In this document: piece by piece, positions 986 to 24,929 of the stretch
Numbering within the stretch: position 1 is the first letter of the stretch
Layout: every line of letters starts with the position of its first letter
Assembly: GCA_051647685.1 (NCBI GenBank)
Contig: JBOFEG010000001.1
Span: 5,961 to 69,960 of the forward strand
Length of the DNA stretch: 64,000 nt
Direction of reading: 5' to 3'
DNA from: Chlamydiales bacterium
GTDB lineage: Bacteria; Chlamydiota; Chlamydiia; Chlamydiales; CALTSX01
Notes under the pieces: model-generated
The model's input: the letters and a program-made list of their open reading frames with translations, nothing else
What the model was told of the DNA's origin: nothing
The model's database searches: none
Program-made: the position numbers and the translations under genes

Positions 986-3157
986 ATGGGTTATTATACA
1001 CAAATCGCACAACGCATCTCCGAAAATAATTATCCTTCATTCATTTCACTATGGGAGGAATACTGCGTAAGTGATTCCGTGGATCTGCAAGAACTCAGAC
1101 AAATACTAGAAAAAATTAAACATTCCGAATGGAAAGAAAATTTTGGAAAACATGTTGATCAAATTCTTCCTCTCGTTACTCCTGTGCAAGAAGAAGAAGA
1201 AGCGTACCCATGTATTCGTTTAATCATAGATCTACAGACATCCAACACTCTCGATCTCGCTGAACTGGCTACATCGGTTCTTACTAAACGATATGGAGAA
1301 CAGAAAAATTTTCGTGAGAAATTGAGATTATGTGGCTTACGCGATAAAAAGGACTTTCAAGGAGCAATCAGTAAATTTGAGCTACTAAACCATATGAAAA
1401 TTGGCAATTTTGTCTTTCATACCGCTGGATGGGGAACGGGAGAATTTGTCGATATTTCCTTTCTATGTGAACAAGTAAAACTTGATTTTGATTATTTAGC
1501 AGGTAAAAAAGATCTATCCTTTGAGAACGCCTTTCGCACACTTATTCCATTAGATAAAGACCATTTTTTAGCACAGCGCTTTGGATCCCCCGATGAATTA
1601 GAAAAACAGGCAAAAGAAAATCCCATTACAGTCATACATATGTTACTCAAAGATCTAGGCCCCAAAACCGCAGCAGATATCAAAGAGGAATTATATGAAC
1701 TTGTTATTCCTGGAAAAGATTGGCAAAAATGGTGGCAAAATGTTCGAGTGAAACTTAAAAAGGATACTTTCATTTTAGTTCCAGATGACATAAAAGAACC
1801 ACTTAGGTTGCGGCAATCAGAAATATCCCATGAAGATATTCTTTTTTCCACCCTATCTGATACTCAAAGCATAGATGGGTTGATCTTAACACTATATAAT
1901 TTTATGAGAGATTTTAGTCCTCTGCTTAAAAATCAAGACTTTACAAATACCTTAATAAAAAAATTGCAAGAATTTATAAATACGGAAGCTCTTACGACAA
2001 AACAATCGATACAGATTCAATTTATTTTAGAAGATCTGCACGCACCACAGACAATTACTTCTAGCCAAATTATTGCTCATTTATCAGTACAAGATATCTA
2101 TAAACTTGTGGGTAGTATTGAAATACTTGCTTTTAAAAAGCGTACTCTTATTACAATCAGACAAACACGAACTGATTGGAGCGAGATTTTTGCCAATTTG
2201 TTATTTCAAATTGAACATAGCCCTATACGGGATTATATCTTAGAAGAATGTCTTGCATCTAACGAAAAACAGAAAATTATTACGCAATTAGAATATCTCT
2301 TATCGCGACCTATAACGTCTCCAACTACATTGCTTTGGTATTTTCAAAAAATTATGAAAACCTCCTCTCTTCCCTTATCAGATTTCGCCGGTAGATGTAG
2401 ATTCCTAGAAGCTTTTTTCACTGTTCTGCCTATTTTAGAAGAGAAAAATAACAAAGAGCTAATTAAAAAAATGCATACCTTTATTACGAATGCTAAATAC
2501 AGCAACATTCGTAAGTTATTTCAAAATACTGATAGAACATTTTTACAAGAAATCTTACTGCTTACTACAAAAAGTTCTTCTCTCTCCGATCACGAAATTA
2601 AGATCCTTCATGCTTTAGCTGAGGTAGTACATCCCTCTCTTAAAAAATTGCGTAAAAAATCAGATGTCATTTCGAAAACAGAAGATATTATTTGGAGTAC
2701 AGAAATTGGATTTTCTAAATTAAAAGCTCGTATTGAGCACATTGCTAATGTAGAGATACTGGACAACGCAAAAGAAATTGAAGAGGCTCGAGCACACGGG
2801 GATCTGCGAGAAAACGCGGAATATAAAGCTGCTTTAGAAAGACGATCAAGACTCCAACAAGAATTACAACTGTTGTCAGCACAAATTCAAAAGACCCGAG
2901 TTTTAACAACTAAAGATATCCAAACACAAATGGTTGGAATCGGTTGTATTGTAGAATGCAAAGATACTGCTGGGAAACTCAATCAATTTACTCTACTGGG
3001 ACCTTGGGATGCGGATCCAGAAAATCATATTTTCTCCTTCCAATCTAAATTTGCTCAAGATATTACAGGTCTTAGAATTGGCGATCGCTTTACATCCAGA
3101 AATACAGAATATGTAATATCCTCCATCAAAAATTACTTACAAGAAAATAATAAATAA
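986..3157 (+). CDS. greA: Transcription elongation factor GreA, long chlamydial form
   Basis: 723-aa ORF. The C-terminal ~150 aa carry the GreA signature (EEARAHGDLRENAEYKAALERRSRLQQEL coiled-coil finger, then a GreA C-terminal-like domain). The ~560-aa N-terminal extension matches the unusually long GreA known from Chlamydia. Confidence 0.85.
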   Translation: MGYYTQIAQRISENNYPSFISLWEEYCVSDSVDLQELRQILEKIKHSEWKENFGKHVDQILPLVTPVQEEEEAYPCIRLIIDLQTSNTLDLAELATSVLTKRYGEQKNFREKLRLCGLRDKKDFQGAISKFELLNHMKIGNFVFHTAGWGTGEFVDISFLCEQVKLDFDYLAGKKDLSFENAFRTLIPLDKDHFLAQRFGSPDELEKQAKENPITVIHMLLKDLGPKTAADIKEELYELVIPGKDWQKWWQNVRVKLKKDTFILVPDDIKEPLRLRQSEISHEDILFSTLSDTQSIDGLILTLYNFMRDFSPLLKNQDFTNTLIKKLQEFINTEALTTKQSIQIQFILEDLHAPQTITSSQIIAHLSVQDIYKLVGSIEILAFKKRTLITIRQTRTDWSEIFANLLFQIEHSPIRDYILEECLASNEKQKIITQLEYLLSRPITSPTTLLWYFQKIMKTSSLPLSDFAGRCRFLEAFFTVLPILEEKNNKELIKKMHTFITNAKYSNIRKLFQNTDRTFLQEILLLTTKSSSLSDHEIKILHALAEVVHPSLKKLRKKSDVISKTEDIIWSTEIGFSKLKARIEHIANVEILDNAKEIEEARAHGDLRENAEYKAALERRSRLQQELQLLSAQIQKTRVLTTKDIQTQMVGIGCIVECKDTAGKLNQFTLLGPWDADPENHIFSFQSKFAQDITGLRIGDRFTSRNTEYVISSIKNYLQENNK

Positions 3158-9304: not shown

Positions 9305-10465
9305 TTAAAAATCAAGACGAATGTCCACTGTGAGACCCATTAAACTAAAGTCTAATCCCTGTCGTAAAAATTTAACTATGGGTGAAGTAGTCGCTCCAGC
9401 TGCTACATCAACTACGCGAACTACTTGGTTTACTCTCCACCAGTATTGTGATTCGAACCCAATTCTTACCATTAAATGGTTTTGGTCATCATTAAAATAG
9501 CACTTGCGCGCAATACCGAGCATATACTTCGCCATCGGACAAAACTTATGACAATCATTTTTTAATTTTATTCTGGATAAATTATTTGGACTATATCTTT
9601 CTGAATGACTAATTTGGAATTTTCCATAAAGCATTCCTATACCAAATTCATTATAAAGACTCACTCCTCTACCAATATACCAGTTAGCTCCAAACCCCAT
9701 AACTGGACCAAGTCCCTTGAAAGAACAACTTTCCTTGACATGCACTAAATCATCCCCAAGGCCAAATGTTGTCGCAATCGGATCTCCACCGGTATAACGA
9801 GTGCTTTGTCTCGTAGTAATCCAAGCAGCTTCAAGTGCCGTGAAATGACGAATGGCTAAACAATCACTAACAAAAAAATCTCGCGCTAAATCCCAACAGA
9901 GTGCCCGAAAGTGCAACTCACTTTGCGATTTTGCTTCAGAACAAAATAGAAATATAGCTCCATCATTGGGAATAGTTATGTTATAAGCTCCGACTAAAGG
10001 AATGACATTGTCGTTACATCCAGAGGCTACTACATTAGAGCCTGCACTAGCAAAATCACTATAGCATAAATTTGATTCCCAACCATCATGATTAATGTTA
10101 CATCCAAGCATTACTTTATAACCCCAATTCCACTTAGAATGCACATCTTTTATGTCCCCTTTAACGGGAAATTCAAGGACGGGATTTTGTTTTCCATACG
10201 CATAATCGGTGCCGCATGTACCTCCTTGCCAGTACAAGAGAGATGCACCTATATTCCAATTGTATCCACAACATTGGCCACAACTATTTAGAGTAGGACG
10301 AGCAGATGCAGTGTAAGCTCCACACGTACCGTTTGGAGTTGTTATATATATCCGATCTATTTTTTTACCTATTTCTTCCATGCGGTCATCAATGCCAGCT
10401 GCAAAGATAGTATGACTTAAGGTAGCCAAGGCCAACATGGTTATACCTTTCTTTATTATATTCAT
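9305..10465 (-). CDS. Cysteine-rich MOMP-like outer-membrane beta-barrel porin, paralog 1
   Basis: 386 aa. Signal peptide (...SHTIFAAG), conserved TTPNGTCGAYTASARPTL...CGQCCG block shared with the three paralogs downstream, alternating beta-strand pattern, and C-terminal DIRLDF (terminal Phe, the OMP sorting signal). Confidence 0.75.
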   Translation of the reverse strand: MNIIKKGITMLALATLSHTIFAAGIDDRMEEIGKKIDRIYITTPNGTCGAYTASARPTLNSCGQCCGYNWNIGASLLYWQGGTCGTDYAYGKQNPVLEFPVKGDIKDVHSKWNWGYKVMLGCNINHDGWESNLCYSDFASAGSNVVASGCNDNVIPLVGAYNITIPNDGAIFLFCSEAKSQSELHFRALCWDLARDFFVSDCLAIRHFTALEAAWITTRQSTRYTGGDPIATTFGLGDDLVHVKESCSFKGLGPVMGFGANWYIGRGVSLYNEFGIGMLYGKFQISHSERYSPNNLSRIKLKNDCHKFCPMAKYMLGIARKCYFNDDQNHLMVRIGFESQYWWRVNQVVRVVDVAAGATTSPIVKFLRQGLDFSLMGLTVDIRLDF

Positions 10466-10720
10466 TTACCACCTCAGTGTTTTTTGAAATAATTCTTTTT
10501 ATTATTAATGTATTCGTATCATTTCTATATTTTCAAATTATATGATTATAAAATATTTCAAACTTCATTTTATTGAAAAAATAGAATTGATATTCCATCT
10601 CAAAACACAGTGCAGACTTAAAGAATCTCTATAGTCAACGGCTCGATATTTTGTATTTATATCCCCTCCTTATAGTCAGCACTATGTTTTTATTATCACT
10701 TTCCTTGCAGTCCACCTAAT

Positions 10721-11881
10721 TTAAAAGTCTAAACGCGCCTCTAATATAAGTCCATGGAGGCTCATATCTGTTCTTAAAAAACTATAACGCTCTACTGCTT
10801 GGAATATTGCCCCGGTTCCGGACGTAGTGATTGTCTCTGATTTTACCATTTGATTGATACGGAACCAGTATTCCGCTTCGAATCCAAAGCGAAGTCGAAA
10901 ATGCTGCATATCATCCCAAAAATATCTATCATACTGTATAGCAAAAAACATTTCTAGTTCTGGAATAAATGAATGATGATTTGTACAGATTCCAGGTCTT
11001 TGATTAACACCTATGCTATAAGTTTCTGTATGATTCACTTTAAATTGACCATACACTAAACTAGCAGCAAAATTGGCAAATAAACTAAAACCTCTACAGA
11101 CATGAAAATTATTATCCCATCCAACCATGGGTCCAAATCCCCAATATTTTGAACAATCGTATACGGAGTATAAATTACACCCAATATCGCCTCCGATATA
11201 TTTAGAGCTTTGTTGTAATGTAAAGAACCCAGCCTTTAATCCAAAATGAGGATGAGTAGATAAGTGTCTACTGACGTAATAGTCTCTTCCGAGTTCTAAT
11301 TCAATTACATTATATTTTAATTTGAATCTAGAGTGAGAGCGAGATGACTTTGTCAACACATCTGTAATGTCTCCTATTGTTGGAAAGCCTTTTAAAGGTA
11401 TAACAGATTGAAGAGTTGTTGCATGCACTGTTGTGTTGCTAGAACTGCCTGTTTCATACCATTTATACCGCAAAGAAGAATCCCAACCATCGTGTTGAAA
11501 ATTATATCCAATTCCCACTTTAAGTCCCCAATCCCACTTAAAATCGACATATCGAATAGGAGAACAATTTGAACCACCGCAGGGTGATGTTACACTATCA
11601 GCAATATAGGCATATTCTGTTCCGGCTACTTTTGGGTGTAAATACAGAGCACCAATTTCTGCCCACCAGTTATTTCCACAACAACCATCACATTCATCGA
11701 GTATTGGTCTAGCAAGTGCGGTTGTAGCTCCACAAGTTTCATTTGGAGTCACAATTCGAACTTGTTGCATCTGCCTATTTAGATCACTAAGCCGTAATTC
11801 GGCAAAGATTCCTTGACTCAACAATGCTGAGCCCAATAGTATCTTTACAGCTTTCATTTGCATAAATAAAATCCTCCACAC
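10721..11881 (-). CDS. Cysteine-rich MOMP-like porin, paralog 2
   Basis: 386-aa ORF. VTPNETCGATTALARPILDECDGCCG block, ends EARLDF. The true start is probably the internal MQMKAVKILLGSALLSQGIFA (11863 or 11857), which gives a normal signal peptide. Confidence 0.75.
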   Translation of the reverse strand: MWRILFMQMKAVKILLGSALLSQGIFAELRLSDLNRQMQQVRIVTPNETCGATTALARPILDECDGCCGNNWWAEIGALYLHPKVAGTEYAYIADSVTSPCGGSNCSPIRYVDFKWDWGLKVGIGYNFQHDGWDSSLRYKWYETGSSSNTTVHATTLQSVIPLKGFPTIGDITDVLTKSSRSHSRFKLKYNVIELELGRDYYVSRHLSTHPHFGLKAGFFTLQQSSKYIGGDIGCNLYSVYDCSKYWGFGPMVGWDNNFHVCRGFSLFANFAASLVYGQFKVNHTETYSIGVNQRPGICTNHHSFIPELEMFFAIQYDRYFWDDMQHFRLRFGFEAEYWFRINQMVKSETITTSGTGAIFQAVERYSFLRTDMSLHGLILEARLDF

Positions 11882-12044
11882 CTAATTTTTGTAAAGCAAT
11901 ATCAAGCTAAATAAATGCTCCACAACTTTTACTGAGTTACTTAATTAGACTAATTAAAGGATGTAAGAAATATTTAAAAGCTTTTTTTTTATCTTACAAA
12001 ATTAATAAGAAAATTTCGGAGACAAACATTTTGAAGATTCTCTC

Positions 12045-12503
12045 CTAAAATCTCTTGCATAAGAGAAATTGCATTGAAAAAATATTTTTAAAAAATAAAA
12101 AATGAATAGAAAGTTTTCTATAATTTAAAGTAATATCGCGAGTTTCTAATATTTCATTGGCCCGCCAAATATGTTCTGCATCAATGCTAATCTCAGAATG
12201 AGGTGCATTTTATCGCAATTATAAGATGTATTGTAAGCACCTCCAACTCCCATTTGTATAGGCGGAACAAATATGCGTCGTAACTGATATATATGATTCT
12301 TAGGCTGAGTAAGTGTCTATCTTATCTCTTTGATCGGTTTTAAATAATCCATAGAGTAGCGATCGAGAAACATCTCCATATAAATAAAAACTGTTGCAAA
12401 AATACCACCGTGTTTGAAGGGCAAAGTAAGAATCTGCTCCTGAAAACTCATTACAATCTTTCATCACAGAATAGACTGCCATAGTATTATTAACATAATT
12501 CAA
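12045..12503 (-). pseudogene. Decayed C-terminal fragment of a MOMP-like porin paralog
   Basis: The 67-aa ORF (12300-12503) reads ...VMKDCNEFSGADSYFALQTRWYFCNSFYLYGDVSRSLLYGLF..., aligning with VSVKDCSRFSGAGPHFGLGTEWHFCGKFYLYGDICGSLMYGKF of paralog 3. After its stop, homology continues in other frames by hand translation: GVGGAYNTSYNCDKMHLILRLA, then IDAEHIWRANEILETRDITLNYRKLSIH versus FDAQYIWRINQMLEVKDVT...LSIH. The N-terminal ~220 codons and the xLDF terminus are missing. Confidence 0.7.
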
Positions 12504-12611
12504 AATTTTAAATAATTATTGTATATAAATATAACGCGTATTTTGCTTCATAATATTAACGGGTAGAGAGTTATCTCTACCCTAAATGATTTTATATGTA
12601 AAAGTACATGG

Positions 12612-13718
12612 TTAGAAATCGAGTTTTATGTCAAAAGTAAAACCGTGAATACTTAGATCTTCAGAAATTCTTCCAAAACGAAGAGCCGTTACATCTTTAA
12701 CTTCCAACATTTGATTTATACGCCAAATATATTGTGCGTCAAATCCAAAACGCAACATAATATGCATATTGTCATCACAACTGCAGTACGTGCTATAACC
12801 AAGTCCAAGAAGAGTACCTACAGAAGAAATTAAAGAATGGCGTATTTGACATATTCCAATGAGATTACTACAGGGAGTTAAACTAAATCTCTCTTTATGA
12901 TGTACATTAAATTTTCCATACATTAAAGACCCACAAATATCTCCGTAAAGGTAAAACTTACCACAGAAATGCCATTCCGTTCCCAATCCAAAGTGGGGGC
13001 CTGCTCCTGAAAAACGACTACAATCTTTAACAGATACAAAATTCCCTGCAATCGTCCCATATCGACTTTGTTGTCCTAATCCAATCCAAGCAGCTTTTAC
13101 CCCTATTTTTGGATGTAAGGCTAAGTACTCACTTATATAGAAAGCTCTACCTAGTTCAAATTGTAAAGCATTTAGCCCAATACAAAAATGGGAATTAGCT
13201 TTTTTGGCAACTAAAAAAGCGGAGGAATCTGTTTCTTCATTTGCAATACTAGGTAATCCCTTCAAAGCTATTACAGAGTTGTTAGTTCCGCTACAAGTAG
13301 ATTGACACCCACGAGATACAAAGCGAGTATATTCTAAAAAAATATCCCAACCATCATAAGGAAAATTATAACCGATACCCGTTTTGAATCCCCAATCCCA
13401 ACGAAAATCAATTGATTTGAGACAACCTTTAATTGGAACAATAGTAGTTGGGTTAAAATTAATGACTCCACATGCAAATTCGGTACCTGATATCTTTGGA
13501 TGCCAATACAATATTGATGCTGAAACATAGACATTAGCACCGCAACATCCGCATTCTGGATCTAAAATTGGACGCGCAAGCGCTGTAGTTGCTCCACAGG
13601 TTTCATTTGGAGTCACAATTCTAAGTTGCTCCATTTGGCTTTCAAGTTCGACAAGTCTATCTGCAAACAATGTTGTCAAACAAAACATAATACTTGGAAT
13701 TAATAGTTTTATTTTCAT
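12612..13718 (-). CDS. Cysteine-rich MOMP-like porin, paralog 3
   Basis: 368 aa. Signal peptide, VTPNETCGATTALARPILDPECGCCG block, ends DIKLDF. Confidence 0.75.
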   Translation of the reverse strand: MKIKLLIPSIMFCLTTLFADRLVELESQMEQLRIVTPNETCGATTALARPILDPECGCCGANVYVSASILYWHPKISGTEFACGVINFNPTTIVPIKGCLKSIDFRWDWGFKTGIGYNFPYDGWDIFLEYTRFVSRGCQSTCSGTNNSVIALKGLPSIANEETDSSAFLVAKKANSHFCIGLNALQFELGRAFYISEYLALHPKIGVKAAWIGLGQQSRYGTIAGNFVSVKDCSRFSGAGPHFGLGTEWHFCGKFYLYGDICGSLMYGKFNVHHKERFSLTPCSNLIGICQIRHSLISSVGTLLGLGYSTYCSCDDNMHIMLRFGFDAQYIWRINQMLEVKDVTALRFGRISEDLSIHGFTFDIKLDF

Positions 13719-13758
13719 ATATTTTACCTTTAACTAAAATCTTTAGCCATTTATAACT

Positions 13759-14925
13759 TTAAAAGTCTAACCTTAGTGCAGCTGTTATTCCATGTAGTCC
13801 CAAATCTTCTGAAATGTGGCTATAATTTGCTACAGGACTAATTAAACTAAGATTTTGATTGGCTCGTAGCAATTGATTAATTCTCCAGAAATATTGGCTA
13901 TCTAAATTAATCTGAAACCGAATATGGTTCTTATCATCATTGAAATAATTATCGAATTGTATACCTAATTGAAATTCCATATTTGGAATAAAAGCATGGA
14001 ATTTATCTACAAGCTTAATAGTATTTAAACATTTTAACCGGCTGTAATCATTTTTATGAATCACATCAAAGTTTCCATACAATAATGCAGCATTTATATT
14101 ACCAAATAAACTAAAATTTTGACAAATATGCCAATTACTATAAATACCAGTTCGAACCCCTAAGCCGAAAAATTCGTTTCTTCCCTTTACGTGAACTGTA
14201 TTTACATCAAGACCAGTGGGTTCGTTAGCTGCGCCTATTACACCTCCGGTATAGTTAATTCCTTGTTGTAGTTTAATCCATGTAGCTTTTGCTCCCATTT
14301 GAGGTCTTATAGCTAGATGTTCACTAACATAGTAATAACGACCCAGTTCTAAATCTAAAGCATTTAAAACAAGATCAAATTGGGATTTAGCTCTGGTGCT
14401 ATATGCAAAATATCCATCGGGTAAATTTGTAATCGAAGAGTTTCCTTGATCAGGGATAATTGCATTGTTTCTTGCTGCAGAACTTCGTTTGGAGGCATGC
14501 GTATCAAACCAAGTATATCCAAGAAAAGCATCCCAACCATCATGAGGAAAATTATAACCAAGACCGATTCTCAATCCCCAATCCCAATCGAATTCTACTT
14601 CTTTCAATCTTCCATTAATTGGAAATTGTCCACTACTATTGGCTATAGAATAAGCGAAGTCGGTTCCATTAACCTTTGCATTCCAATATAAAATAGAGAT
14701 TTGTAAAAACCAGTTGGTGCAACATTGACTGCAATCGCTTTCAAGAATCGGACGTGCTATAGCTGTTGTGGCTCCGCAAGTTCCATTTGGACTTATAAAA
14801 TAAATCTGATCTAACCGTCTCTGTAATTCACCAAAACGAGAATCTGAATCTGCTGCTGCAGATGCTATAATCGGTGTTCCCAAAGCAAGTGATAGACACA
14901 ATTTTGTAATCACACTTCTCTTCAT
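13759..14925 (-). CDS. Cysteine-rich MOMP-like porin, paralog 4
   Basis: 388 aa. Signal peptide (...IIASAAA), ISPNGTCGATTAIARPILESDCSQCC block, ends ALRLDF. Confidence 0.75.
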   Translation of the reverse strand: MKRSVITKLCLSLALGTPIIASAAADSDSRFGELQRRLDQIYFISPNGTCGATTAIARPILESDCSQCCTNWFLQISILYWNAKVNGTDFAYSIANSSGQFPINGRLKEVEFDWDWGLRIGLGYNFPHDGWDAFLGYTWFDTHASKRSSAARNNAIIPDQGNSSITNLPDGYFAYSTRAKSQFDLVLNALDLELGRYYYVSEHLAIRPQMGAKATWIKLQQGINYTGGVIGAANEPTGLDVNTVHVKGRNEFFGLGVRTGIYSNWHICQNFSLFGNINAALLYGNFDVIHKNDYSRLKCLNTIKLVDKFHAFIPNMEFQLGIQFDNYFNDDKNHIRFQINLDSQYFWRINQLLRANQNLSLISPVANYSHISEDLGLHGITAALRLDF

Positions 14926-15100
14926 TGTTTTAACCCCTTTGATTGATCTTTCAGTAACTTTTTAGGACTTTTTTGATAAACCTATAAAGTCCTTAACGTA
15001 TAAATTTAAATAAAATTTAATTAAAGAAAAAAATAAAATCAAATTTTTTCTTTAAATATTTGATATTATAAATTTTTTATCTGAGTTTTGGAGCTATTTT

Positions 15101-16093
15101 CTAACTCAAAGATTTGTGTTGCATAATGGTAAATTTAGCTCCTAGTAGAACTGTTTTATCGTTACAAATAATCTTTACTGGTATTTCTGATAATAATTCT
15201 GAAAATCTGCCTTTATGTGTAAATGCTTGCATGAAAGTTCCATCTTGCAACTTTTTAATAAGTCTCGGAGGAATTCCACCTCCGAGAAAAATACCTCCAT
15301 AAGATAAGTATTTTAACGCGAGATTGCCCGCTTCTGCTCCATACAAAGAGAGGAATAAATCTAAAGTTTTTACAGAAACAGGACAAATATTTTGTAATGC
15401 TGATTCTATAATCACTTGTCCAGTTTTTTGTGTTTGCAATTCAGATTGTACATCTGGATTAGGAACCTCTCCTTTCACATCAATAAAAAATTGAAATAAA
15501 TTAAGCAATCCTATTCCAGATAGTACTCTTTCATAAGAAACATGATCAAATTTTTTGAGCATATACGATAGCAAGGAAATTTCTAGATCATTTCGAGGAG
15601 AAAAATCCACGTGTCCCCCTTCACTTGGAATAGAGAGAACGGTATCATCGAGTGTAATCATTCCAACTTCTCCAAGACCAGTTCCGACAGAAATTATTGC
15701 TTGAAGCCCTTTTGTTATGACTTTTCCTGGATTGATAACTACAAAATCTTTATCGGATAATAATTGCACTCCAAAAACGCTCGCTTCTAAATCATTTAGT
15801 AAAATTACCTGAGCAAAAGAAAATCGGCTCGTAAGTTCTTTGCCATCTATATACCAAGGTAAATTTGTGGTTTTGCAGCTATTATTTTTTATAGGTCCTG
15901 CTACACCCAAACAAACCAATTGAATTATTTCAGAAATACCCATGAGAAATTGTTGTAGAACATGATAGAAACTTGAATATTCTTGGCTGTTAAAAACTTG
16001 TTCTCGCAAAATTTCGTCTGTGCCATCCCTCTTCCTATACATTAGTAAATGTGTTTTTGTGCCACCGATGTCTCCTGCTATATACATACTCAA
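15101..16093 (-). CDS. glk: Glucokinase
   Basis: 330 aa. The N-terminal IAGDIGGTKT phosphate-1 loop, GVAGPI, and EGGH are typical of Glk-type (non-ROK) bacterial glucokinases. Confidence 0.8.
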   Translation of the reverse strand: MSMYIAGDIGGTKTHLLMYRKRDGTDEILREQVFNSQEYSSFYHVLQQFLMGISEIIQLVCLGVAGPIKNNSCKTTNLPWYIDGKELTSRFSFAQVILLNDLEASVFGVQLLSDKDFVVINPGKVITKGLQAIISVGTGLGEVGMITLDDTVLSIPSEGGHVDFSPRNDLEISLLSYMLKKFDHVSYERVLSGIGLLNLFQFFIDVKGEVPNPDVQSELQTQKTGQVIIESALQNICPVSVKTLDLFLSLYGAEAGNLALKYLSYGGIFLGGGIPPRLIKKLQDGTFMQAFTHKGRFSELLSEIPVKIICNDKTVLLGAKFTIMQHKSLS

Positions 16094-16172
16094 TCCTAGT
16101 TCAAATTATATTCTAACTATTAAAATAGCCATTTTTTTGCCATTATGTGGGAAATTCATTTTAGGAGGAAGT

Positions 16173-17237
16173 ATGACAACACCACAAGATGCCGCAAAGA
16201 AAAAAGCTTTGGAACATGTTTTTGCACATTTAGAAAAACAATTTGGCGAAGGAACTATCATGACACTTGGAAAACATTCCAAGCGTAGAAAAGTAAGTAT
16301 GATCCCAACTGGCACTATTGCTTTGGATATTGCAACTGGAATTGGCGGGATTCCTCGAGGTCGAATCACAGAAATTTATGGCCCTGAAGCATCGGGAAAA
16401 ACTACACTTGCTAATCATATTACTGCAAATTGTCAAAAACAAAATGGAACAGTTGCTTACATCGATGCAGAACATGCTTTGGATCCCGCTTACACCGCAC
16501 GTATTGGAGTCAACTTAGAAGAGCTTATGATATCACAGCCAGATTGCGGAGAAGATGCGTTAAATATTGCAGAAATGCTTGCGAGATCTAACGCTGTAGA
16601 TTTAATTGTTGTCGACTCCGTCGCAGCACTTGTTCCGAGAACTGAACTCGAAGGAGAAATTGGCGACCCACAAGTAGGATTGCAAGCACGTATGATGTCG
16701 CAAGCACTCCGAAAATTAAACGCTACGATCTCAAAGAGCAACACGGCACTTGTGTTTATTAATCAGGTCCGAGAGAAAATTGGGATCTCTTATGGAAATC
16801 CTGAAACGACAACGGGTGGCCGAGCTCTTAAGTTTTATGCTTCGTTGCGTCTCGAAATTAGACGGATTGCTTCTATTAAATCATCGGAAGATGATATTGG
16901 AAATCGAGTAAGAGTAAAAGTTGTAAAGAATAAACTGGCCCCTCCCTTCCGAACAGCCGAATTTGATATTTTGTTCAATGAAGGAATATCTAAACTTGGT
17001 TCATTAATCGATATGGGCGTAACCCTTGGAGTGATTGAAAAGAAAGGTACTTGGTTTAGTTATAAAGAACATCGGTTTGGACAGGGAAAAGAAACTTGTC
17101 GAGAAGAGCTAAAAAAGAATCCAGTACTGGTAAAAGAAATTGAAGATAAAGTTTTTGAACTTTCTTTTGAGAAAAATCCTCTATTACTTGAAGTTGGTGG
17201 CGAATCAAAACCTTTAGCCACATCTGTTGCAGAATGA
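16173..17237 (+). CDS. recA: Recombinase RecA
   Basis: The track ORF starts at 16020 but overlaps glk. The in-frame ATG at 16173 is preceded by AGGAGG (16164-16169) and gives MTTPQDAAKKKALEHVFAHLEKQFGEGTIMTLG, the normal RecA N-terminus. Walker A GPEASGKTTLA, and the ALKFYASLRLEIRR and KVVKNKLAPPF motifs are present. Confidence 0.95.
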   Translation: MTTPQDAAKKKALEHVFAHLEKQFGEGTIMTLGKHSKRRKVSMIPTGTIALDIATGIGGIPRGRITEIYGPEASGKTTLANHITANCQKQNGTVAYIDAEHALDPAYTARIGVNLEELMISQPDCGEDALNIAEMLARSNAVDLIVVDSVAALVPRTELEGEIGDPQVGLQARMMSQALRKLNATISKSNTALVFINQVREKIGISYGNPETTTGGRALKFYASLRLEIRRIASIKSSEDDIGNRVRVKVVKNKLAPPFRTAEFDILFNEGISKLGSLIDMGVTLGVIEKKGTWFSYKEHRFGQGKETCREELKKNPVLVKEIEDKVFELSFEKNPLLLEVGGESKPLATSVAE

Positions 17238-17246
17238 TGTAACTCG

Positions 17247-17273
17247 CTGTAGTTTAAATAGTCTAAACTACAG
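17247..17273. terminator. Hairpin between convergent recA and ispA (possible bidirectional terminator)
   Basis: Perfect 10-bp inverted repeat, ctgtagttta (17247-17256) and taaactacag (17264-17273), with a 7-nt loop. It overlaps the ispA stop codon. No strong U-tract follows. Confidence 0.4.
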
Positions 17274-18156
17274 CATTATTAGAACTATACAGCCCTTCGC
17301 CAAATTTATAATGGAGCAGTGGCTCTAGATCGAGTGGAATAGGGAGTAGACTACTCTTTGTTTGTAGAAGTTGTATTTCTTTATTGTATAATGCATGTGT
17401 CGTTTCAAGACCCACTAACAAAGCAACATTTACGCTCTCTTTTTTCTCTCTATCTTGCTCTTGGTCTTGTAAATCATCAGCAATTTGAAACGCCATTCCA
17501 AAATGACTTGCAATTTCTTTAATCTGATCTACAGCTGCACATTGTCCTCCACCAAAGAGCCAGCCAAACAAAAAGGAAGCTTCAAACAAAGTGACTGTTT
17601 TTTTATGAAATATTTCTTTAACCATTGCCAGATCTTTATTTTTTGAAAAAAGATCTAAAAATTGTCCACCTGTCGCGCCATGTAAGCCCGAAGCATAGGA
17701 TGCCTCTCTAAGGGCGAGTAATCCAGCTTCCCGTGCGTTTAGAGGTGATACTATTTGACCGTTTTCTAAATTGCATGTAGCTCGATATATTTTTTCATAA
17801 GATAAATTTATTAAAGCGTAAGAAGCTAGAAGTGCAGTAGTCTCTCCAAATACTTTATGGACACTTGGCACCCCTCTTCGATAATCATCGTTATCCATAC
17901 AAGGGAGATCATCAATAATTAGCGATGCTGTATGCATGTACTCAATGGCAAGAGCGGCTTCTAAAGCATCTAATCCAGGCGATATAGCTTGAGCAATAGA
18001 CAGAGTGCAAAGGGGTCTAACTCGCTTCCCACCGCTAAGTAAAGAGTACTTGCAGGCATCTCGCAAAGCATTCTCTTCTTTCCAACTTTGGATATCTTTT
18101 TGTAGTGCAATCTCAAAACTATTTTTAAGCCTATCTATTTCATCCATGCAATTCAT
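17263..18156 (-). CDS. ispA: Polyprenyl (farnesyl/geranylgeranyl) diphosphate synthase
   Basis: 297 aa. First and second Asp-rich motifs are present: LIIDDLPCMDNDDYRRG and FQIADDLQD. Confidence 0.85.
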   Translation of the reverse strand: MNCMDEIDRLKNSFEIALQKDIQSWKEENALRDACKYSLLSGGKRVRPLCTLSIAQAISPGLDALEAALAIEYMHTASLIIDDLPCMDNDDYRRGVPSVHKVFGETTALLASYALINLSYEKIYRATCNLENGQIVSPLNAREAGLLALREASYASGLHGATGGQFLDLFSKNKDLAMVKEIFHKKTVTLFEASFLFGWLFGGGQCAAVDQIKEIASHFGMAFQIADDLQDQEQDREKKESVNVALLVGLETTHALYNKEIQLLQTKSSLLPIPLDLEPLLHYKFGEGLYSSNNAVV

Positions 18157-18818
18157 AAAATAACCTCACTAGGTACGAGTGAATGTCTAACGATAGTACC
18201 TGGATAACAAGTAAAGTTTTTTGCAAGCAAAACACCTGGATTCACTACCGAGTTACACCCTAAACTAGATCCATCTCCAATGATCGCCCCAAATTTACTT
18301 AAATGACTGGGTTTACGCTGTCCTTGCACAATGACATCTATTTTTTGGTAATCCAAACGACAATTGGCTAAAATAACGCCAGCACCCAAATGAACATTAT
18401 TTCCTAAGACGGAATCGCCTACATAATTAAAATGCGGTATTTTGGCATCATCAAACAAAATAGATGACTTGACTTCACTGCAATGTCCGACAATACAATT
18501 ATTGCCGATCAAACTGTGTGCTCTAAGACATGCCCCATGACGAATCTCACAATTTTCTCCGATATAGCAAGGTCCTTCAATGTAGACTCCTGGATCAACG
18601 CGCGTATTTTTACCGATAAAAATGAGTGATGGATTTATGAGGTAACACGACTTTGGTAACGCCACATATTGGATACCAAGCCTTAGGGTTGTAAAATATT
18701 TTGGCAGTTTGATTAGGCTATTCCAAACTGGTTGGTCAATTTCAAATAGCTCTTTATGCTCAGAGTGCTGGGTAGAGAAAAAAATATCGGGTTTAAAACA
18801 GTCATCATCCATACCCAA
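18153..18818 (-). CDS. Left-handed beta-helix (hexapeptide-repeat) transferase, GlmU C-terminal-like
   Basis: 221 aa with consecutive hexapeptide repeats (IGENCEIRHGACLRAHSLIGNNCIVGHCSEVKSSIL...VGDSVLGNNVHLGAGVILAN). Overlaps ispA by 4 nt. An ispA plus short glmU-like pair is what I recall from Chlamydia. Confidence 0.65.
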   Translation of the reverse strand: MGMDDDCFKPDIFFSTQHSEHKELFEIDQPVWNSLIKLPKYFTTLRLGIQYVALPKSCYLINPSLIFIGKNTRVDPGVYIEGPCYIGENCEIRHGACLRAHSLIGNNCIVGHCSEVKSSILFDDAKIPHFNYVGDSVLGNNVHLGAGVILANCRLDYQKIDVIVQGQRKPSHLSKFGAIIGDGSSLGCNSVVNPGVLLAKNFTCYPGTIVRHSLVPSEVIL

Positions 18819-18919
18819 AACATTGTAGAGAAAATTTACTAAAGGTCAATCCCCCTACAAAAACCATATTAAATTAAGAAGAAGAATATATATATTATAT
18901 CTTCTTTGTCTTTATACAA

Positions 18920-19072
18920 TGTGGATCTGTTCATAAGTGCCCTTTTTCATAGACAAGGCAATTGTTCATAGACTGTTCATAACTTGGGCAAATTGTTTAA
19001 AACTATTTCTTGTATGGTACTTATGAACAAGTTATGAACAGCTGTGAACAGTCTATGAACAGGTTATGAACA
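18920..19072. repeat. Iteron-like array of the 9-mer TTATGAACA on an 11-bp register (5 direct copies facing 3 inverted copies)
   Basis: Direct copies start at 19021, 19032, 19042 (CTGTGAACA), 19053 (CTATGAACA) and 19064. Inverted copies TGTTCATA(A/G) start at 18928, 18963 and 18974. TGTGGATCT lies at 18920-18928. The whole array is non-coding. Confidence 0.8.
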
Positions 19073-19184
19073 AGTTTCCCACATAAAAAAAAATCAAAAC
19101 TTTACACTTTTGGCATAAAAATTACTGATTTTAGGTGATTATAACTTGTAATTCCTTCGATTTTTTGAATTAATAAATGATAAA

Positions 19185-19259
19185 TCTGGATGGGAGGATT
19201 CGAACCTCCGACCCCTAACACCCCATGCTAGTGCGCTAGCCATGCTGCGCCACATCCAG
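19185..19259 (-). tRNA. tRNA-Pro (anticodon GGG)
   Basis: Hand-folded cloverleaf from the reverse complement: CTGGATG-TG-GCGC-AGCATGGCTA-GCGC-A-CTAGC-ATGGGGT-GTTAG-GGGTC-GGAGG-TTCGAAT-CCTCC-CATCCAG-A. It has a 7-bp acceptor stem, a TTCGAAT T-loop, and the anticodon loop AT-GGG-GT with G37. CCA is not encoded. Confidence 0.9.
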
Positions 19260-19370
19260 AAAACATAAGAATTATACTGTGAAAAAAAGAACAAAAAATG
19301 AGAACATTTTCTAGGAAAGTTAGAAGGATAAACCAGTTTTTGTCAATCGTAAAAGGAGCCTACTTCATCT

Positions 19371-20045
19371 ATGAAAATGCATCGCAGTTGGTATGACAAA
19401 TTAGAGAACGAAATTCGAAAACCTTACATACAAGATCTAAAAAAATTTCTGGAAGAAGAAAAGCGGCTTGGCAAAATTATATACCCAGCAGAGGATTTAG
19501 TATTTCACGCTTTTTCTCAGACTCCATGGGAAAATGTGAAAGTTATTATCATGGGTCAGGATCCCTACCATGGTCCTGGTCAAGCACATGGACTTTCCTT
19601 TAGCGTACCTAAAAATATAGCTATTCCTCCATCCCTTAGGAATATATATCAAGAATTAGCAACTGATTTACAAATAAAACCGCCGACCACGGGCTGTTTG
19701 ATTCCATGGGCAAAGCAGGGGGTTTTATTATTAAATGCAACCCTTACCGTTCAAGCAGGATTGCCTAAGTCTCACTATGGCAAAGGGTGGGAAACATTTA
19801 CAGATGCCGTAATCGATGCCCTGGTACAAAGGGAAGACCCTCTTGTCTTTATTCTCTGGGGCGCCTCTGCTAAAGAGAAATGCACAAGAATTTTATCCCA
19901 GCGTTCTCATCCTCACTTAGTTTTACACTCGGCGCACCCATCTCCCTTTTCCGCCACGAAATTTTTCGGATGTAGACACTTCTCGCAAGCGAATTTCTAT
20001 TTAAAAAAATGGGGTCGAGACCCTATATGTTGGGGGTATAGATAA
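19371..20045 (+). CDS. ung: Uracil-DNA glycosylase
   Basis: 224 aa. GQDPYHGPGQAHGLSFSV (catalytic water-activating loop) and HPSPFSA (Leu-intercalation loop region) are family-1 UDG motifs. Confidence 0.9.
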   Translation: MKMHRSWYDKLENEIRKPYIQDLKKFLEEEKRLGKIIYPAEDLVFHAFSQTPWENVKVIIMGQDPYHGPGQAHGLSFSVPKNIAIPPSLRNIYQELATDLQIKPPTTGCLIPWAKQGVLLLNATLTVQAGLPKSHYGKGWETFTDAVIDALVQREDPLVFILWGASAKEKCTRILSQRSHPHLVLHSAHPSPFSATKFFGCRHFSQANFYLKKWGRDPICWGYR

Positions 20046-20065: not shown

Positions 20066-21297
20066 GTGAAATTTTTGAGAAATAATAAACGAACTTTGTT
20101 TGCTATTTTTCTCACATTTGCGTTAGATGCCTTAAGCGCAACCATTATTTTCCCTATACTAACCCCACTATTTTTAGACCCAGAACGCGGCTTATTTGCA
20201 GCGGGATACTCACCTTTTGCGAAAAATGTCTTTCTTGGGATCTGTTTAAGTATCTTTCCTCTAGCTCAATTGATCTTTTCTCCTATTTGCGGACAAATCG
20301 CAGATTGTATAGGTAGGAAACGGGTTTTTTTTTTACAATTTTGCTAACTGCTATTGGATATTTTCTATGTGCCATTGGCATTGGAATACGAATTTTCTCT
20401 ATCATTTTGGTCGGTCGGTTAGTTACAGGAATTGGGGCGAGTAATTTTACTGTATGCTTGGCGGCACTTGCCGATATTACTGGAGGTAGTGGCGTACGGG
20501 GTCGCTATTTAAGCATTGGGTCTATGTTTGCAGGATTGATTTTTATTTTAGGACCGTTTGTAGGGGGTAAATTTTCTGATGTAACGGAATATTCTTGGGC
20601 GTCTTTTGATCTTCCTATGTGGATAGGCGGAATTCTATCGCTTATTAACGCATTATGTATCCCTTTCTTATTTAAAGAAACTCTGCCGGTTACCAAGAAG
20701 CTTTCTTTATCTGGTTGGAAATTAGAGAATACTTTAGAGGTCTTTCGAAGAAAGAATATCTCTATAATTTACTCTATCTTATTCTTATATTTTTTTGGAT
20801 GGAATCTCATATATCAATTTACACCTGCCTATCTGCTTCAGAGATTTAATATGACAAATTCTCAAATTGGTAATTTGATATCCCTTATGGGAGTATTTTG
20901 GATTATAGGATCAGGTGTATTTTTTCAATTAGAACGAAAATTTCTCTCTACGAAAAATATTCTATTATTATCACTGACCTCAATGGGTCTATTGTCTCTA
21001 TGTGTTGGCTTTGCTAGTCATGTCTGGGACTTAGTTTTAATTGTTGGATTTACAGTGAGTTTTGCAGGTATCATTTGGCCTACTTGTATTGTAGCTATTT
21101 CTCATATTGCAGGGGAAAACATGCAGGGAAAAATGCTGGGAGTTACGCAGTCTGTGCAGTCTCTCGCAACTCTCCTCGCTCCATTGATTGGTGGGACACT
21201 TTTATTTCTCAGTCCGAGTATAAATTATCTAATTGCTGCCTTATTCTCTTTATCTGCTGTTTTTTTGGCTCTCAGAATTAAAAAAGAAGAATATTAA
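20066..21297 (+). pseudogene. MFS transporter interrupted by a frameshift in a T10 tract
   Basis: ORF 20066-20347 (93 aa, GTG start) carries TM1-2 and the MFS loop motif GQIADCIGRKRVFF. ORF 20341-21297 (318 aa, no credible start of its own) continues with TM3-12. The frames switch inside the T run 20325-20334. One extra T (T11) would read GRKRVFFFTILLTAIGYFLCAIG as one ~410-aa protein. Confidence 0.75.
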
Positions 21298-22522: not shown

Positions 22523-24109
22523 TTATTGAAAATAAAAAAAATGAGAAATTTTTTGTAACAATGCTCCTAAAGATTTTTTTTCTTTTATGGAGAGAGGAGT
22601 AGTTTGCTCATATAATTGTTCGCGTATTTTAATGAGCTGAGCATATATAGAATTATATGCATTCTTTGTTCTTTTATCGGATTGTTTGAGTGGAAATGTC
22701 TTTCGAATTCTATGAATTAATGCCTCTTTCGATTCCCCAGAGAATTGTTCTACAATTTGTTTCTTTTGTTGTAGACTTCCCTTACGACTAGCTAAGGTAT
22801 AGATGGCTTGCCTTGGAATAGAGACGATCTTTTTCTGTAAATCTGAAGAAAGGACAATATATAGTTCATAGTATTGTAGAAAATTATAGGGAGTTTGTCG
22901 ATTCCCATATACAGCTACGAGCCAAGAAGAAAAAGCCCCGTCTTTATAGGTTTTTAAGAGAATTTGCGCTTTTTTGATTCTCTCTCCATGTAGTAGTATA
23001 GATTGATTATGAATGGCTTTTAATTCGCAAGTAATCTGTGAGAGTTCCTCTAAATCCTTATCGATCTGCTGCGTTTGGGAGTCTCCGTAGTGATGCAGCA
23101 GATTTTCAATCTGGTCTTTTTCTATGTCAGTCAGTGGTATGGTTTGAAATACACCTGAAAAGCTCGATAAATCTCCGTCAACAGACTGACTTGCTAATCG
23201 AGATACTTTCGTATTACTCGATGGTTCGAGTCGACTTTGCAAGATGGCATTGATTTCAGTATTTTCGATTGAAGGTTTGTTTTTCTCTTTTTCTAATTGT
23301 TTAATACTTTTTCTAACAATAGGTAGTTTTTCAGGCATAGTACCTCCTAATTCTTCGATAGTTTTACGAACCTTTTCACCAACATCAAAATGAGTTTGAT
23401 TAGCTTTACTCTTTCCTTGGATTTTATCTCGTCGGAGTTTTTCTTCGGTTTGTGTGACTCTAAAATAATTCGCAGCAGTCTCTGTGCTTCCCATATAATC
23501 TAGTATTTCTTGCCCTTTTTGCAGTTTTGCACCTTCGCCACCATAGAGACCCTTGTATCCGTGATCTTGAAAGATAACAAAATCGAGAGGTGTATGTACT
23601 CCAGCTCGGTATGCTGTTGCAGCGAGGATTTTATTATGGCTACGAAGTTCATTTCTTAAGAAGAGACGTTTCTCATCTTCTTCTAAATCCTGGAAAGCTC
23701 TGTCATTTGCTAATTCTTGCCGACGAGTTTGTATAGCAAAATAAGTTTGTCCATTAGCAACAATCGGTTTTGATGGATCTCCATTTTGTACAATTAAATA
23801 GCAACCATAGCGTGATAGCCTTATATCGGAAAATTGTCTTTGCCCTCCTTTTCCTATTTCGATCATCTCGTGCACATCAACGAAATGATCGGCAACAATA
23901 TGGCCACTAATTTTACATGCTTCTTTAGCCTTATCAATAACGGGAAGGAAATTTCTATGTTCAAAATATTCTAAAATCTTAGATAGCTTCCGAGCACTCC
24001 AAAATTCGCAACCATTTTCTTCTTGTTTAATGGACTCAAAAGTTTGATGATGGGTTGTTTCGACGATATTTTTATTCACTGCTAAATCTCCTAACATTCT
24101 CAATATCAT
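22523..24109 (-). CDS. Fusion protein: DNA-damage-inducible protein D (DinD)-like domain plus pGP6-D/CT583-like ParA-partner domain
   Basis: Single uninterrupted frame. The ORF opens at 24250, but a start at M48 (24109) or M52 (24097) avoids overlap with parA. The segment from about 24052 to 23276 matches DinD as I recall it (FWSARKLSKILEY, KAKEACKISGH, RLSRYGCYLIVQNGDPSKP, GQTYFAIQTRRQE, DEKRLFLRNEL, FQDHGYKGLYGG, YMGSTETAANYFRVTQTEEKL, HFDVGEKVRKTIEELGGTMPEKLP). The last ~240 aa match the chlamydial plasmid protein pGP6-D (LLHGERIKKAQILL, FSSWLVAVYGNRQTPYNFLQYYELY, LQKKIVSIPRQAIYTLASRKGSLQQKKQIV). Confidence 0.8.
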   Translation of the reverse strand: MILRMLGDLAVNKNIVETTHHQTFESIKQEENGCEFWSARKLSKILEYFEHRNFLPVIDKAKEACKISGHIVADHFVDVHEMIEIGKGGQRQFSDIRLSRYGCYLIVQNGDPSKPIVANGQTYFAIQTRRQELANDRAFQDLEEDEKRLFLRNELRSHNKILAATAYRAGVHTPLDFVIFQDHGYKGLYGGEGAKLQKGQEILDYMGSTETAANYFRVTQTEEKLRRDKIQGKSKANQTHFDVGEKVRKTIEELGGTMPEKLPIVRKSIKQLEKEKNKPSIENTEINAILQSRLEPSSNTKVSRLASQSVDGDLSSFSGVFQTIPLTDIEKDQIENLLHHYGDSQTQQIDKDLEELSQITCELKAIHNQSILLHGERIKKAQILLKTYKDGAFSSWLVAVYGNRQTPYNFLQYYELYIVLSSDLQKKIVSIPRQAIYTLASRKGSLQQKKQIVEQFSGESKEALIHRIRKTFPLKQSDKRTKNAYNSIYAQLIKIREQLYEQTTPLSIKEKKSLGALLQKISHFFYFQ

Positions 24110-24140
24110 TATAAATTGAATTTCGCTGTAAAATGCAATT

Positions 24141-24929
24141 TTATTTTGAATCAATAGAAGATAAATGTACAGTCGTTTTACATTTAGAAAATAGTTCATT
24201 TGTAAGAGATTTATAGTCCTCGGCAGCTCTGCTATTTGTTGGGATATCAAATACGGGTTTTCCCTGAATCGAGGCTACGGATACGGCAATGTCACGACGA
24301 ATTTTCGTTTGTAAGATTTTATCTGGAAAAGACTTTTGAATGGAGGCGAGAAATGCTTCATTATTTTTTCCACGCACGTTCCAAAAAGAGAGAGCAACTC
24401 CTAAAATATCAAAGGGATGTCTCGTTGCAATTTGTGATAGAAAAATAGAGAGTCTGCTCAAACCTTTGATGCTATAGAATTCTGGAGTAGCACATATTAA
24501 GCAATGATTAGAGGCAATGAGAGCAGATTCCGTTAGCCAACAGAGCGAGGGAGGGGTATCGATAAGGATAAAGTCATAATTTAGTCTCTGTGTAAGCTTC
24601 TGAAGACGTTCATGAGAATATCTGTCGGATGCGAGCGTCCCAGTCACCTCTACTCTTTCTAAATAACTATCAGCTGGAATCAAATCGAGATTGGGGACAG
24701 AAGTGTGAATAATAACATCGCTTACCGTCTTTTCGTTTTGCAGAACAGGAGCTAAACTATCGTAATGATCTGGATCAAATCCGAGTCCCGTAGTGAGATT
24801 TGCTTGAGCGTCAAAATCGATAACGAGTACTTTTTGTCGATGAAATTTCGCCAGAGCTGCTCCTACATGGAGCAAAGTAGAGGTTTTGGCAGTCCCCCCT
24901 TTAAAACTACTGACTGTAATGATATGCAT
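24141..24929 (-). CDS. parA: ParA/MinD-family partition ATPase (CT582 / pGP5-D-like)
   Basis: 262 aa. Deviant Walker A in MHIITVSSFKGGTAKTST, then VIDFDAQANLT and ILIDTPPS. Lies between thrS and the pGP6-D-like gene, as in the Chlamydia thrS-CT582-CT583 arrangement I recall. Confidence 0.85.
   Translation of the reverse strand: MHIITVSSFKGGTAKTSTLLHVGAALAKFHRQKVLVIDFDAQANLTTGLGFDPDHYDSLAPVLQNEKTVSDVIIHTSVPNLDLIPADSYLERVEVTGTLASDRYSHERLQKLTQRLNYDFILIDTPPSLCWLTESALIASNHCLICATPEFYSIKGLSRLSIFLSQIATRHPFDILGVALSFWNVRGKNNEAFLASIQKSFPDKILQTKIRRDIAVSVASIQGKPVFDIPTNSRAAEDYKSLTNELFSKCKTTVHLSSIDSK

Follow-up and report, generated by a model that had tools for sequence, protein, structure and literature searches.

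A predicted chromosomal replication origin with two opposed arrays of DnaA-box-like 9-mers in a Simkaniaceae-like chlamydia

In E. coli oriC, the DnaA sites follow each other in the order R1, tau1, R5M, tau2, I1 and I2, then R2, then C3, C2, I3, C1 and R4. In the genome sequence (NC_000913.3), the AT-rich 13-mers precede TGTGGATAA (R1), TTATACACA (R2) and TTATCCACA (R4), and the low-affinity sites form clusters of four, 2 bp apart, which are filled cooperatively and inward from the strong boxes R1 and R4 (PMC6070618). The strand-separation scaffold of B. subtilis reads 5'-TAGTAGAAGTAATAGTAG-GGCC-TGTGGATTTGTGGATAAGT-3' (PMC8287927 supplement), in which TGTGGATTTGTGGATAAGT is the pair of DnaA boxes #7/#6. 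The canonical DnaA-trio rule asks for three or more A-centred triplets (NAN), and the unwinding region of B. subtilis incC includes an AT-rich 27-mer.

We know of no chlamydial chromosomal origin that has been defined experimentally. Published predictions rest on skew and on a guessed box beside hemB. These origins are placed next to hemB, not dnaA (PMC4009838, PMC3932018); chlamydiae have two dnaA genes, neither of which is at the skew minimum (PMC2878342), and TTTTCCACA is the DnaA box that Ori-Finder uses for Chlamydiae (PMC2275245).

Here we analyse 64 kb of chromosomal DNA from an environmental chlamydia, hereafter the window. We predict, with a probability of about 0.8, that positions 18870-19083 are the chromosomal oriC of this Simkaniaceae-like organism. 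Established here are the architecture of the locus, its conservation, its low duplex stability and a switch in skew. The original prediction, made from the window's sequence, had given as its first option an origin of DnaA-box-like 9-mers at a strand-bias switch. This option is now supported by the match to the B. subtilis and E. coli modules, by an adjacent tract that resembles an unwinding element, by a skew minimum of the window ~1.2 kb away and by a layout that is exact to the base pair across families. Judged by its sequence, the array appears to be an element of an ordinary type, a DnaA-box cluster, of unusual regularity.

The array lies between two groups of genes. On its left are four Legionella-OMP-like porins, glk, recA, an FPP-synthase-like gene and a hexapeptide transferase similar to the C-terminal part of GlmU, with its start codon at 18818. 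On its right are tRNA-Pro(GGG), ung, an MFS gene, dapA, a DinD/Bro-N-pGP6-D fusion, parA and thrS; recBCD, rpoD, mreC, mutY and a secretin are found farther out. The best named homologues of Ung are from Simkaniaceae (65-68% identity), and Logan contigs reach 87-91%. The tRNA-Pro beside the array and the nearby ParA plus pGP6-D-like pair had both been recognised from the sequence, the latter being the ParA and DinD/Bro-N-pGP6-D fusion genes 3.4-5.9 kb rightward. The assignment of all genes from 9305 to 18818 to the minus strand needs correction: recA (16020-17237) is on the plus strand. A search of the region against Rfam returned the tRNA and one meaningless sub-threshold miRNA match, caused by the inverted arms.

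The motif YTRTGAACA occurs eight times in the window, always within 18928-19072, compared to ~2.5 occurrences expected for the whole 64 kb; eight was reached by none of 100 shuffles. The original prediction that this motif clusters nowhere else in the window therefore holds (8/8 sites fall in the array), and its coordinates are right throughout: five plus-strand copies at 19021, 19032, 19042, 19053 and 19064, three reverse-complement copies at 18928, 18963 and 18974, a gap of ~38 bp between the arms (38 bp as measured) and TGTGGATCT at 18920. In the right arm the copies are, in order, TTATGAACA, TTATGAACA, CTGTGAACA, CTATGAACA and TTATGAACA, with starts spaced by 11, 10, 11 and 11 bp (Table 1).

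A relaxed DnaA-box pattern gives a similar picture, with 10 matches in the 300 bp from 18928 (0.24 expected) and 3 matches in the next-best cluster of the 64 kb. These matches include TTTCCCACA and six to eight sites with at most one mismatch from TTATNAACA; the AGATCCACA box at 18920 is outside the 300-bp count and does not fit the relaxed pattern. At the sequence level, the locus is a cluster of TTATNCACA-like 9-mer DnaA boxes. The 38-bp spacer between the arms may hold an accessory-protein site or a middle box.

Table 1. Features of the predicted origin and its immediate surroundings, in window coordinates
Feature	Position	Strand	Remarks
Promoter-like site for the GlmU-like gene: TTGACC, 16 nt, TACAAT	18822..18849	-	Outward-reading, outside the array
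AT-rich palindromic tract AAGAAGAAGAATATATATATTATATCTTCTT, candidate DNA unwinding element	18870..18906		Stability, palindrome, conservation
T/C-rich element CTTCTTTGTCTTTATACAA	18901..18919	+ (TGTGGAT strand)	Between AT tract and boxes
Outer left candidate DnaA box AGATCCACA (plus strand TGTGGATCT)	18920..18928	-	Counterpart of B. subtilis box #7
Left-arm site TTATGAACA	18928..18936	-	1-nt overlap with outer left box (8-bp offset); counterpart of B. subtilis box #6
Degenerate site CTATGAAAA (plus strand TTTTCATAG)	18944..18952	-	Direct repeat D3; invariant within genus
Left-arm site CTATGAACA	18963..18971	-	YTRTGAACA match
Left-arm site TTATGAACA	18974..18982	-	11 bp from the CTATGAACA site at 18963
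Central spacer, 38 bp	18983..19020		Nearly invariant within genus
Degenerate site TTTTAAACA in central spacer	18994..19002	-	Kept in relatives
Right arm, five head-to-tail 9-mers	19021..19072	+	Separated by 2, 1, 2 and 2 bp
Outer right anchor box TTTCCCACA	19075..19083	+	Sixth 9-mer, in the 11-bp register of the right arm
tRNA-Pro(GGG)	19184..19260	-	Neighbour and integration hotspot, outside the origin

An AT-rich element directly adjoins the outer left box. The least stable 30-mer of the region from 18 to 20 kb is 18870-18899, 20 bp from TGTGGAT, and it ranks 35th among the 63,971 30-mers of the window (top 0.06%). A conserved palindrome, AAGAAGAAGAAT-ATATAT-ATTATATCTTCTT (inverted repeat I7), which is invariant within the genus, has this 30-mer at its centre; a purine run, an AT loop and a pyrimidine run occupy the equivalent place in other chlamydial families. 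In the window as in other chlamydiae, the purine run farther out pairs with the pyrimidine run, forming a conserved hairpin or cruciform. A terminator scan returned no match, and the palindrome is thus no recognisable intrinsic terminator.

Next to this tract, the locus resembles the unwinding module of B. subtilis. The left end of the array, TGTGGATCTGTTCATAAGT (18920-18938), is identical at 16/19 positions to the box #7/#6 pair, and the two boxes have the same 8-bp offset and 1-nt overlap. Accordingly, the first TTATGAACA is positionally homologous to DnaA-box #6 and TGTGGATCT to #7. Such a pair is present in each of the 19 chlamydial genomes compared below, with an identity to the B. subtilis pair of 12-17/19 across chlamydiae. 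The tandem boxes are oriented towards the unwinding region, and incC shares with the chlamydial locus the order and the side of boxes, short GC spacer (in most chlamydiae), triplet element and AT-rich tract.

The triplets themselves differ: B. subtilis has TAG/AAG/TAA where the chlamydial strand has CTT/TTC/CAT. Within 16 bp of the box, on the strand of the 5' tail, we did not find three or more A-centred trios (NAN); this strand reads CTT/TTC/CAT/TGT. At the position of the T/C-rich element, the sequence of other chlamydiae is (TTC/CTT)n and then 3-5 nt of GC-rich spacer; in the window's own genus the GC-richness of this spacer is missing. A triplet-periodic (CTT/TTC)n run stands on the strand and at the place of the A-centred trios of B. 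subtilis in six of the loci (L004, L006, L009, L010, L012 and L013) and in the window at 18876-18919. Its complement reads GAA GAA GAT GAA GAA outward from the box. These are the letters of the B. subtilis trios, but they stand on the other strand and run with reversed polarity.

The overall layout is that of E. coli oriC, with the 13-mers, R1, R2 and R4 in the same order and orientation. Both loci have an AT-rich tract, then TGTGGAT, then arrays that face inward with 2 bp between their 9-mers, and TCCACA at the far end. The right arm has the arrangement of the E. coli weak-site clusters, the lengths are similar (about 165-190 bp), and in the E. coli unwinding element the strand rich in T corresponds to the strand that carries the T/C-rich element here. 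Differences are found in the details. The inner sites of E. coli are heterogeneous and weak, whereas the chlamydial ones are near-identical copies of TTATGAACA; the E. coli consensus has C at box position 6, where the inner boxes here have A. The left arm is irregular by comparison, with starts spaced by 8, 16, 19 and 11 bp. The GATC sites and 13-mer repeats of E. coli are absent, the neighbouring genes differ, and no IHF site was recognised in the array region.

For the binding of DnaA, its assembly order and the place where the DNA melts, we reason from E. coli and B. subtilis. By this analogy, DnaA would first occupy the two outer CCACA-type boxes, 18920-18928 and 19075-19083. ATP-DnaA would then fill the inward-facing arrays of weaker TTATGAACA boxes cooperatively, the 1-2 bp between 9-mers and the 11-bp register placing the protomers head to tail. 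The left oligomer, presumably starting on the pair of tandem boxes that is homologous to #7/#6 of B. subtilis, would melt the AT-rich palindrome at 18870-18906 and hold the T/C-rich strand at 18901-18919. The right oligomer could help to load a second helicase, so that replication would become bidirectional.

A more speculative version of the model, which we consider doubtful, is a two-tier origin code. Every member of the Chlamydiales encodes two different DnaA paralogues; the outer boxes (CCACA) and the inner ones (TTATNAACA) would each be read by a different one of them, with one paralogue anchoring the complex and the other forming the oligomer. Linked to this, (CTT)n, standing in place of the A-centred trios, would be a deviant motif for single-strand recognition. 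Pelliciari et al. reportedly suspected such deviant motifs in the 15% of genomes that have no recognisable DnaA-trios.

We then compared the locus among chlamydiae. Loci came from a genome scan with the GlmU-like protein, from Ung-based look-ups and from a metagenome scan (L157), and the resulting 19 genomes are that of the window, four close relatives and 14 from outside the genus: Simkaniaceae, Neptunochlamydia, Rhabdochlamydiaceae, Parachlamydiales and unclassified Chlamydiia. L011, whose sequence ends at the GlmU-like gene, was left out. The set does not include Chlamydiaceae; the matches of the GlmU-like scan are largely Verrucomicrobia hexapeptide homologues, with no Chlamydiaceae locus among them.

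The conservation in relatives that the original prediction had proposed to check is found in all 19 genomes: the same non-coding module is present with its spacing. Each genome has TGTGGA, and TGTGGAnnTGTnnAnAA lies upstream of the GlmU-like gene in 19/19, at a distance of 70-142 bp in 18 of them and of 335 bp in L019. Across chlamydiae, an AT-rich tract and a run of pyrimidines, (CTT/TTC)n, stand before TGTGGAnnTGTnnAnAA. Across families, plus-oriented TTATNAACA 9-mers are found at +100/101, +111/112, +122, +133 and +144/145 from TGTGGA. The gap between sites is most often 11 bp (40 of 106), and the genus of the window has one additional 11-bp unit. In many genomes, among them the close relatives and several other families, the series closes with TTTTCCACA.

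The inner 9-mer of most chlamydiae is TTATCAACA or TGTTGATAA, one mismatch from TTATCCACA; a G at its degenerate fifth position is specific to the genus of the window. This module is also the densest relaxed-box cluster within +-10 kb in 14/18 loci. The gene on the right varies among genomes (ung in either orientation, a TrmA-like methyltransferase or TatD), and the module is therefore not an ung operator.

Three tandem TGAACA units were also sought in metagenomes. Most matches are unrelated minisatellites, and only two are informative: L157, which is chlamydial, and L093 (contig SDBT01016786.1), which is from Dependentiae/TM6, its NusA being closest to Babeliales and Dependentiae. At 7240-7560 of L093, inverted TGTTCATAA/TGTTGATAA sites stand opposite four TTATGAACA-type copies in the 11-bp register; TTATCAACA and an AT-rich tract, ATATATATAAATATATAT, come after these. 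This array is located between a UDG gene and nusA-infB, and the GC skew goes from -0.047 on one side of it to +0.11 on the other, although all genes are on one strand. It is probably the origin of its Dependentiae organism, and the A6 variant of the box is thus probably not confined to chlamydiae. This suggests that the A6 box recurs in unrelated intracellular lineages.

Strand asymmetry also changes near the array. Within the 64-kb window, the cumulative G-C minimum is at 20,283, within ~1.2 kb of the array, and the best two-segment breakpoint of the skew is at 20,000 (mean -0.084 on the left and +0.044 on the right). In a regression over 50 ORFs, the side of 19 kb on which an ORF lies predicts plus-strand skew beyond the effect of gene strand (t = 2.6 for third codon positions, t = 3.6 for all positions). 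Across the chlamydial loci, compared over +-10 kb each, the flank on the GlmU side has negative skew and the opposite flank a higher one in 18/18 cases, many of which share synteny and are not independent; the opposite flank is positive in 16. The sign, negative and then positive, is that of an origin and not of a terminus.

The location differs from that of the Ori-Finder/DoriC predictions, which place the origin upstream of hemB in Chlamydiaceae, while in the window and in 18 environmental chlamydiae the module is upstream of the GlmU-like gene. The box TTTTCCACA is shared, at the outer right end in relatives, and linkage to dnaA is absent in both; tblastn with an approximate E. coli DnaA as query found no dnaA in the window or in loci L001-L087. 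The window does not contain hemB. In C. trachomatis, however, we take the glmU-like CT629 and ispA CT628 to be four genes from hemB CT633, and many window genes presumably have orthologues numbered CT581-CT650. If this gene order holds, the hemB-adjacent and the GlmU-adjacent loci may be one neighbourhood. Finding TGTGGAnnTGTnnATAA together with a right arm ending in TTTTCCACA within CT628-CT633 of C. trachomatis would unify the module with the hemB-adjacent prediction.

Because the Chlamydiaceae predictions name hemB, the most serious rival to an origin is a regulatory DnaA-box cluster, namely a datA/DARS-type site that titrates or reactivates DnaA, or a DnaA-controlled region upstream of the GlmU-like and FPP-synthase genes, with the origin elsewhere nearby. 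The array always accompanies the same gene, at 70-142 bp from its start in 18/19 genomes, and a promoter-like site, the GGTCAA of which is invariant in relatives, lies between the two. This site is nevertheless outside the array and reads away from it. Such a cluster would moreover not call for the full origin layout that we observe, with opposed arrays, an unwinding-type box pair and the least stable tract adjoining it, nor for a skew switch within ~1.2 kb. We regard this explanation as unlikely.

The original prediction had offered a centromere like R1 parC as an alternative, with the 11-bp iterons bound by the DinD/Bro-N-pGP6-D adaptor of ParA. R1 parC likewise has two sets of helically phased 11-bp repeats, centromeres are often near origins, and the ParA and pGP6-D fusion genes 3.4-5.9 kb from the array are also nearby in L001, L003 and L004. 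In R1, however, ParR binds parC, which lies on both sides of the par promoter, whereas the array of the window is not upstream of the par operon. It is 3.4 kb away from the par genes, with four genes (ung, MFS and dapA among them) in between, and it carries DnaA-box sequences: direct comparison identifies the end boxes and the left pair as such. The array is syntenic with the GlmU-like gene and not with the par genes, and no similar sequence was found in the 72,556 plasmids of PLSDB, which include the chlamydial pGP5/pGP6 plasmids. A centromere is thus very unlikely, even if binding of pGP6-D to the array could coexist with origin function.

The surroundings of tRNA-Pro allow the array to be separated from its right-hand neighbours. 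All eight sites are kept in the close relatives (L001-L003 and the GTDB Simkaniaceae MAG L008), and the 208-bp block 18876-19083 has 89-91% identity within the genus, compared to 75-85% for the flanking coding DNA. A non-coding block that is better conserved than its coding flanks is under selection. Between array and tRNA-Pro, L002 has an insertion of 1.7 kb and L003 one of 2.7 kb; S. negevensis has an island of 4.7 kb with exact 30-nt repeats of the tRNA 3' end at its borders. The array therefore belongs to the side of the GlmU-like gene and not to that of tRNA and ung.

The 3' flank of tRNA-Pro(GGG) (window 19084-19260) is accordingly an integration hotspot right by the array. The island of L002 (8120-9815) carries an AAA_15 ATPase gene, that of L003 (7120-9804) a 530-aa ORF and a Bro-N gene, and that of S. 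negevensis (L006, 460-5237) an N6/N4 methyltransferase.

These insertions bear on the third option of the original prediction, an operator for ung or the tRNA, and on its wider form, an array that would serve a transcription factor of, for example, the OmpR/PhoB type as operator or enhancer and control the GlmU-like operon or tRNA-Pro. Response regulators of this type bind direct repeats about 10-11 bp apart, and both the helical phasing of the repeats and their constant linkage to the GlmU-like gene would fit. The array, however, covers 165 bp, beginning ~70 bp upstream of the -35-like hexamer, no regulator gene adjoins it, and the 1.7-4.7-kb islands part it from tRNA and ung in relatives while leaving it unchanged. 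Nor would an operator account for the CCACA boxes, the AT-rich tract or the skew switch, and we give this option very little weight. LexA/Cheo-box sites (GAAC...GTTC) were considered as well, with recA nearby, and rejected: their half-sites are repeated in direct orientation, at a spacing that does not fit.

Arm-type integrase sites or iterons left by a mobile element at tRNA-Pro can practically be dismissed: the array is 100 bp beyond the tRNA 3' end, a real hotspot, but islands enter between the two and the array stays, it is present without an adjacent tRNA-Pro in L014, L015, L016 and L023, and no integrase or rep gene is found among its neighbours. By this sequence evidence, the array does not appear to be part of a mobile element. 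An att site with arm-type sites was rejected, as the 30-nt tRNA repeats of S. negevensis bound the island with the array outside it; an iteron-type plasmid origin was rejected for lack of a rep gene among the neighbours and of a PLSDB match.

If the locus is the chromosomal origin, as we predict, the window and the 18 other genomes would provide a phylum-wide template resolved to the base pair, with unwinding tract, tandem pair, opposed arrays and anchor boxes. With the template it becomes testable which sequences each DnaA paralogue binds, whether ATP-DnaA uses the A6 boxes and whether pyrimidine triplets can replace the DnaA-trios. A further use would be as a defined fragment, both in origin-based vectors and where the growth rates of uncultured chlamydiae are to be read from marker frequencies in metagenomes.

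Finally, several neighbouring genes have unusual structures. At 22523-24929, the chromosomal pGP6-D (UPF0137) homologue has a full-length DinD/Bro-N domain as its fusion partner (NCBIfam DinD equivalog, E = 3e-120); the longest ORF of this fusion shares ~110 bp with the end of parA. The homologue in L004 has 245 aa and no DinD part, and the Bro-N gene of the L003 island is a second, free-standing one. The MFS gene downstream of ung (20066-21297) is split into ORFs of 93 and 318 aa, as it is in relatives of the genus (93 + 303 aa), while more distant Simkaniaceae have a single gene of 410-421 aa; the split gene is either a conserved pseudogene or a conserved frameshift. The four Legionella-MOMP-like porin paralogues (9305-14925, 368-388 aa) are in tandem on the minus strand, some of them separated by long gaps of 250-730 bp, and relatives have two to three copies at the same place. 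At 986-3157, a 723-aa protein has GreA/GreB domains only at its C-terminus (residues 569-705), preceded by a long N-terminal extension that matches no family.
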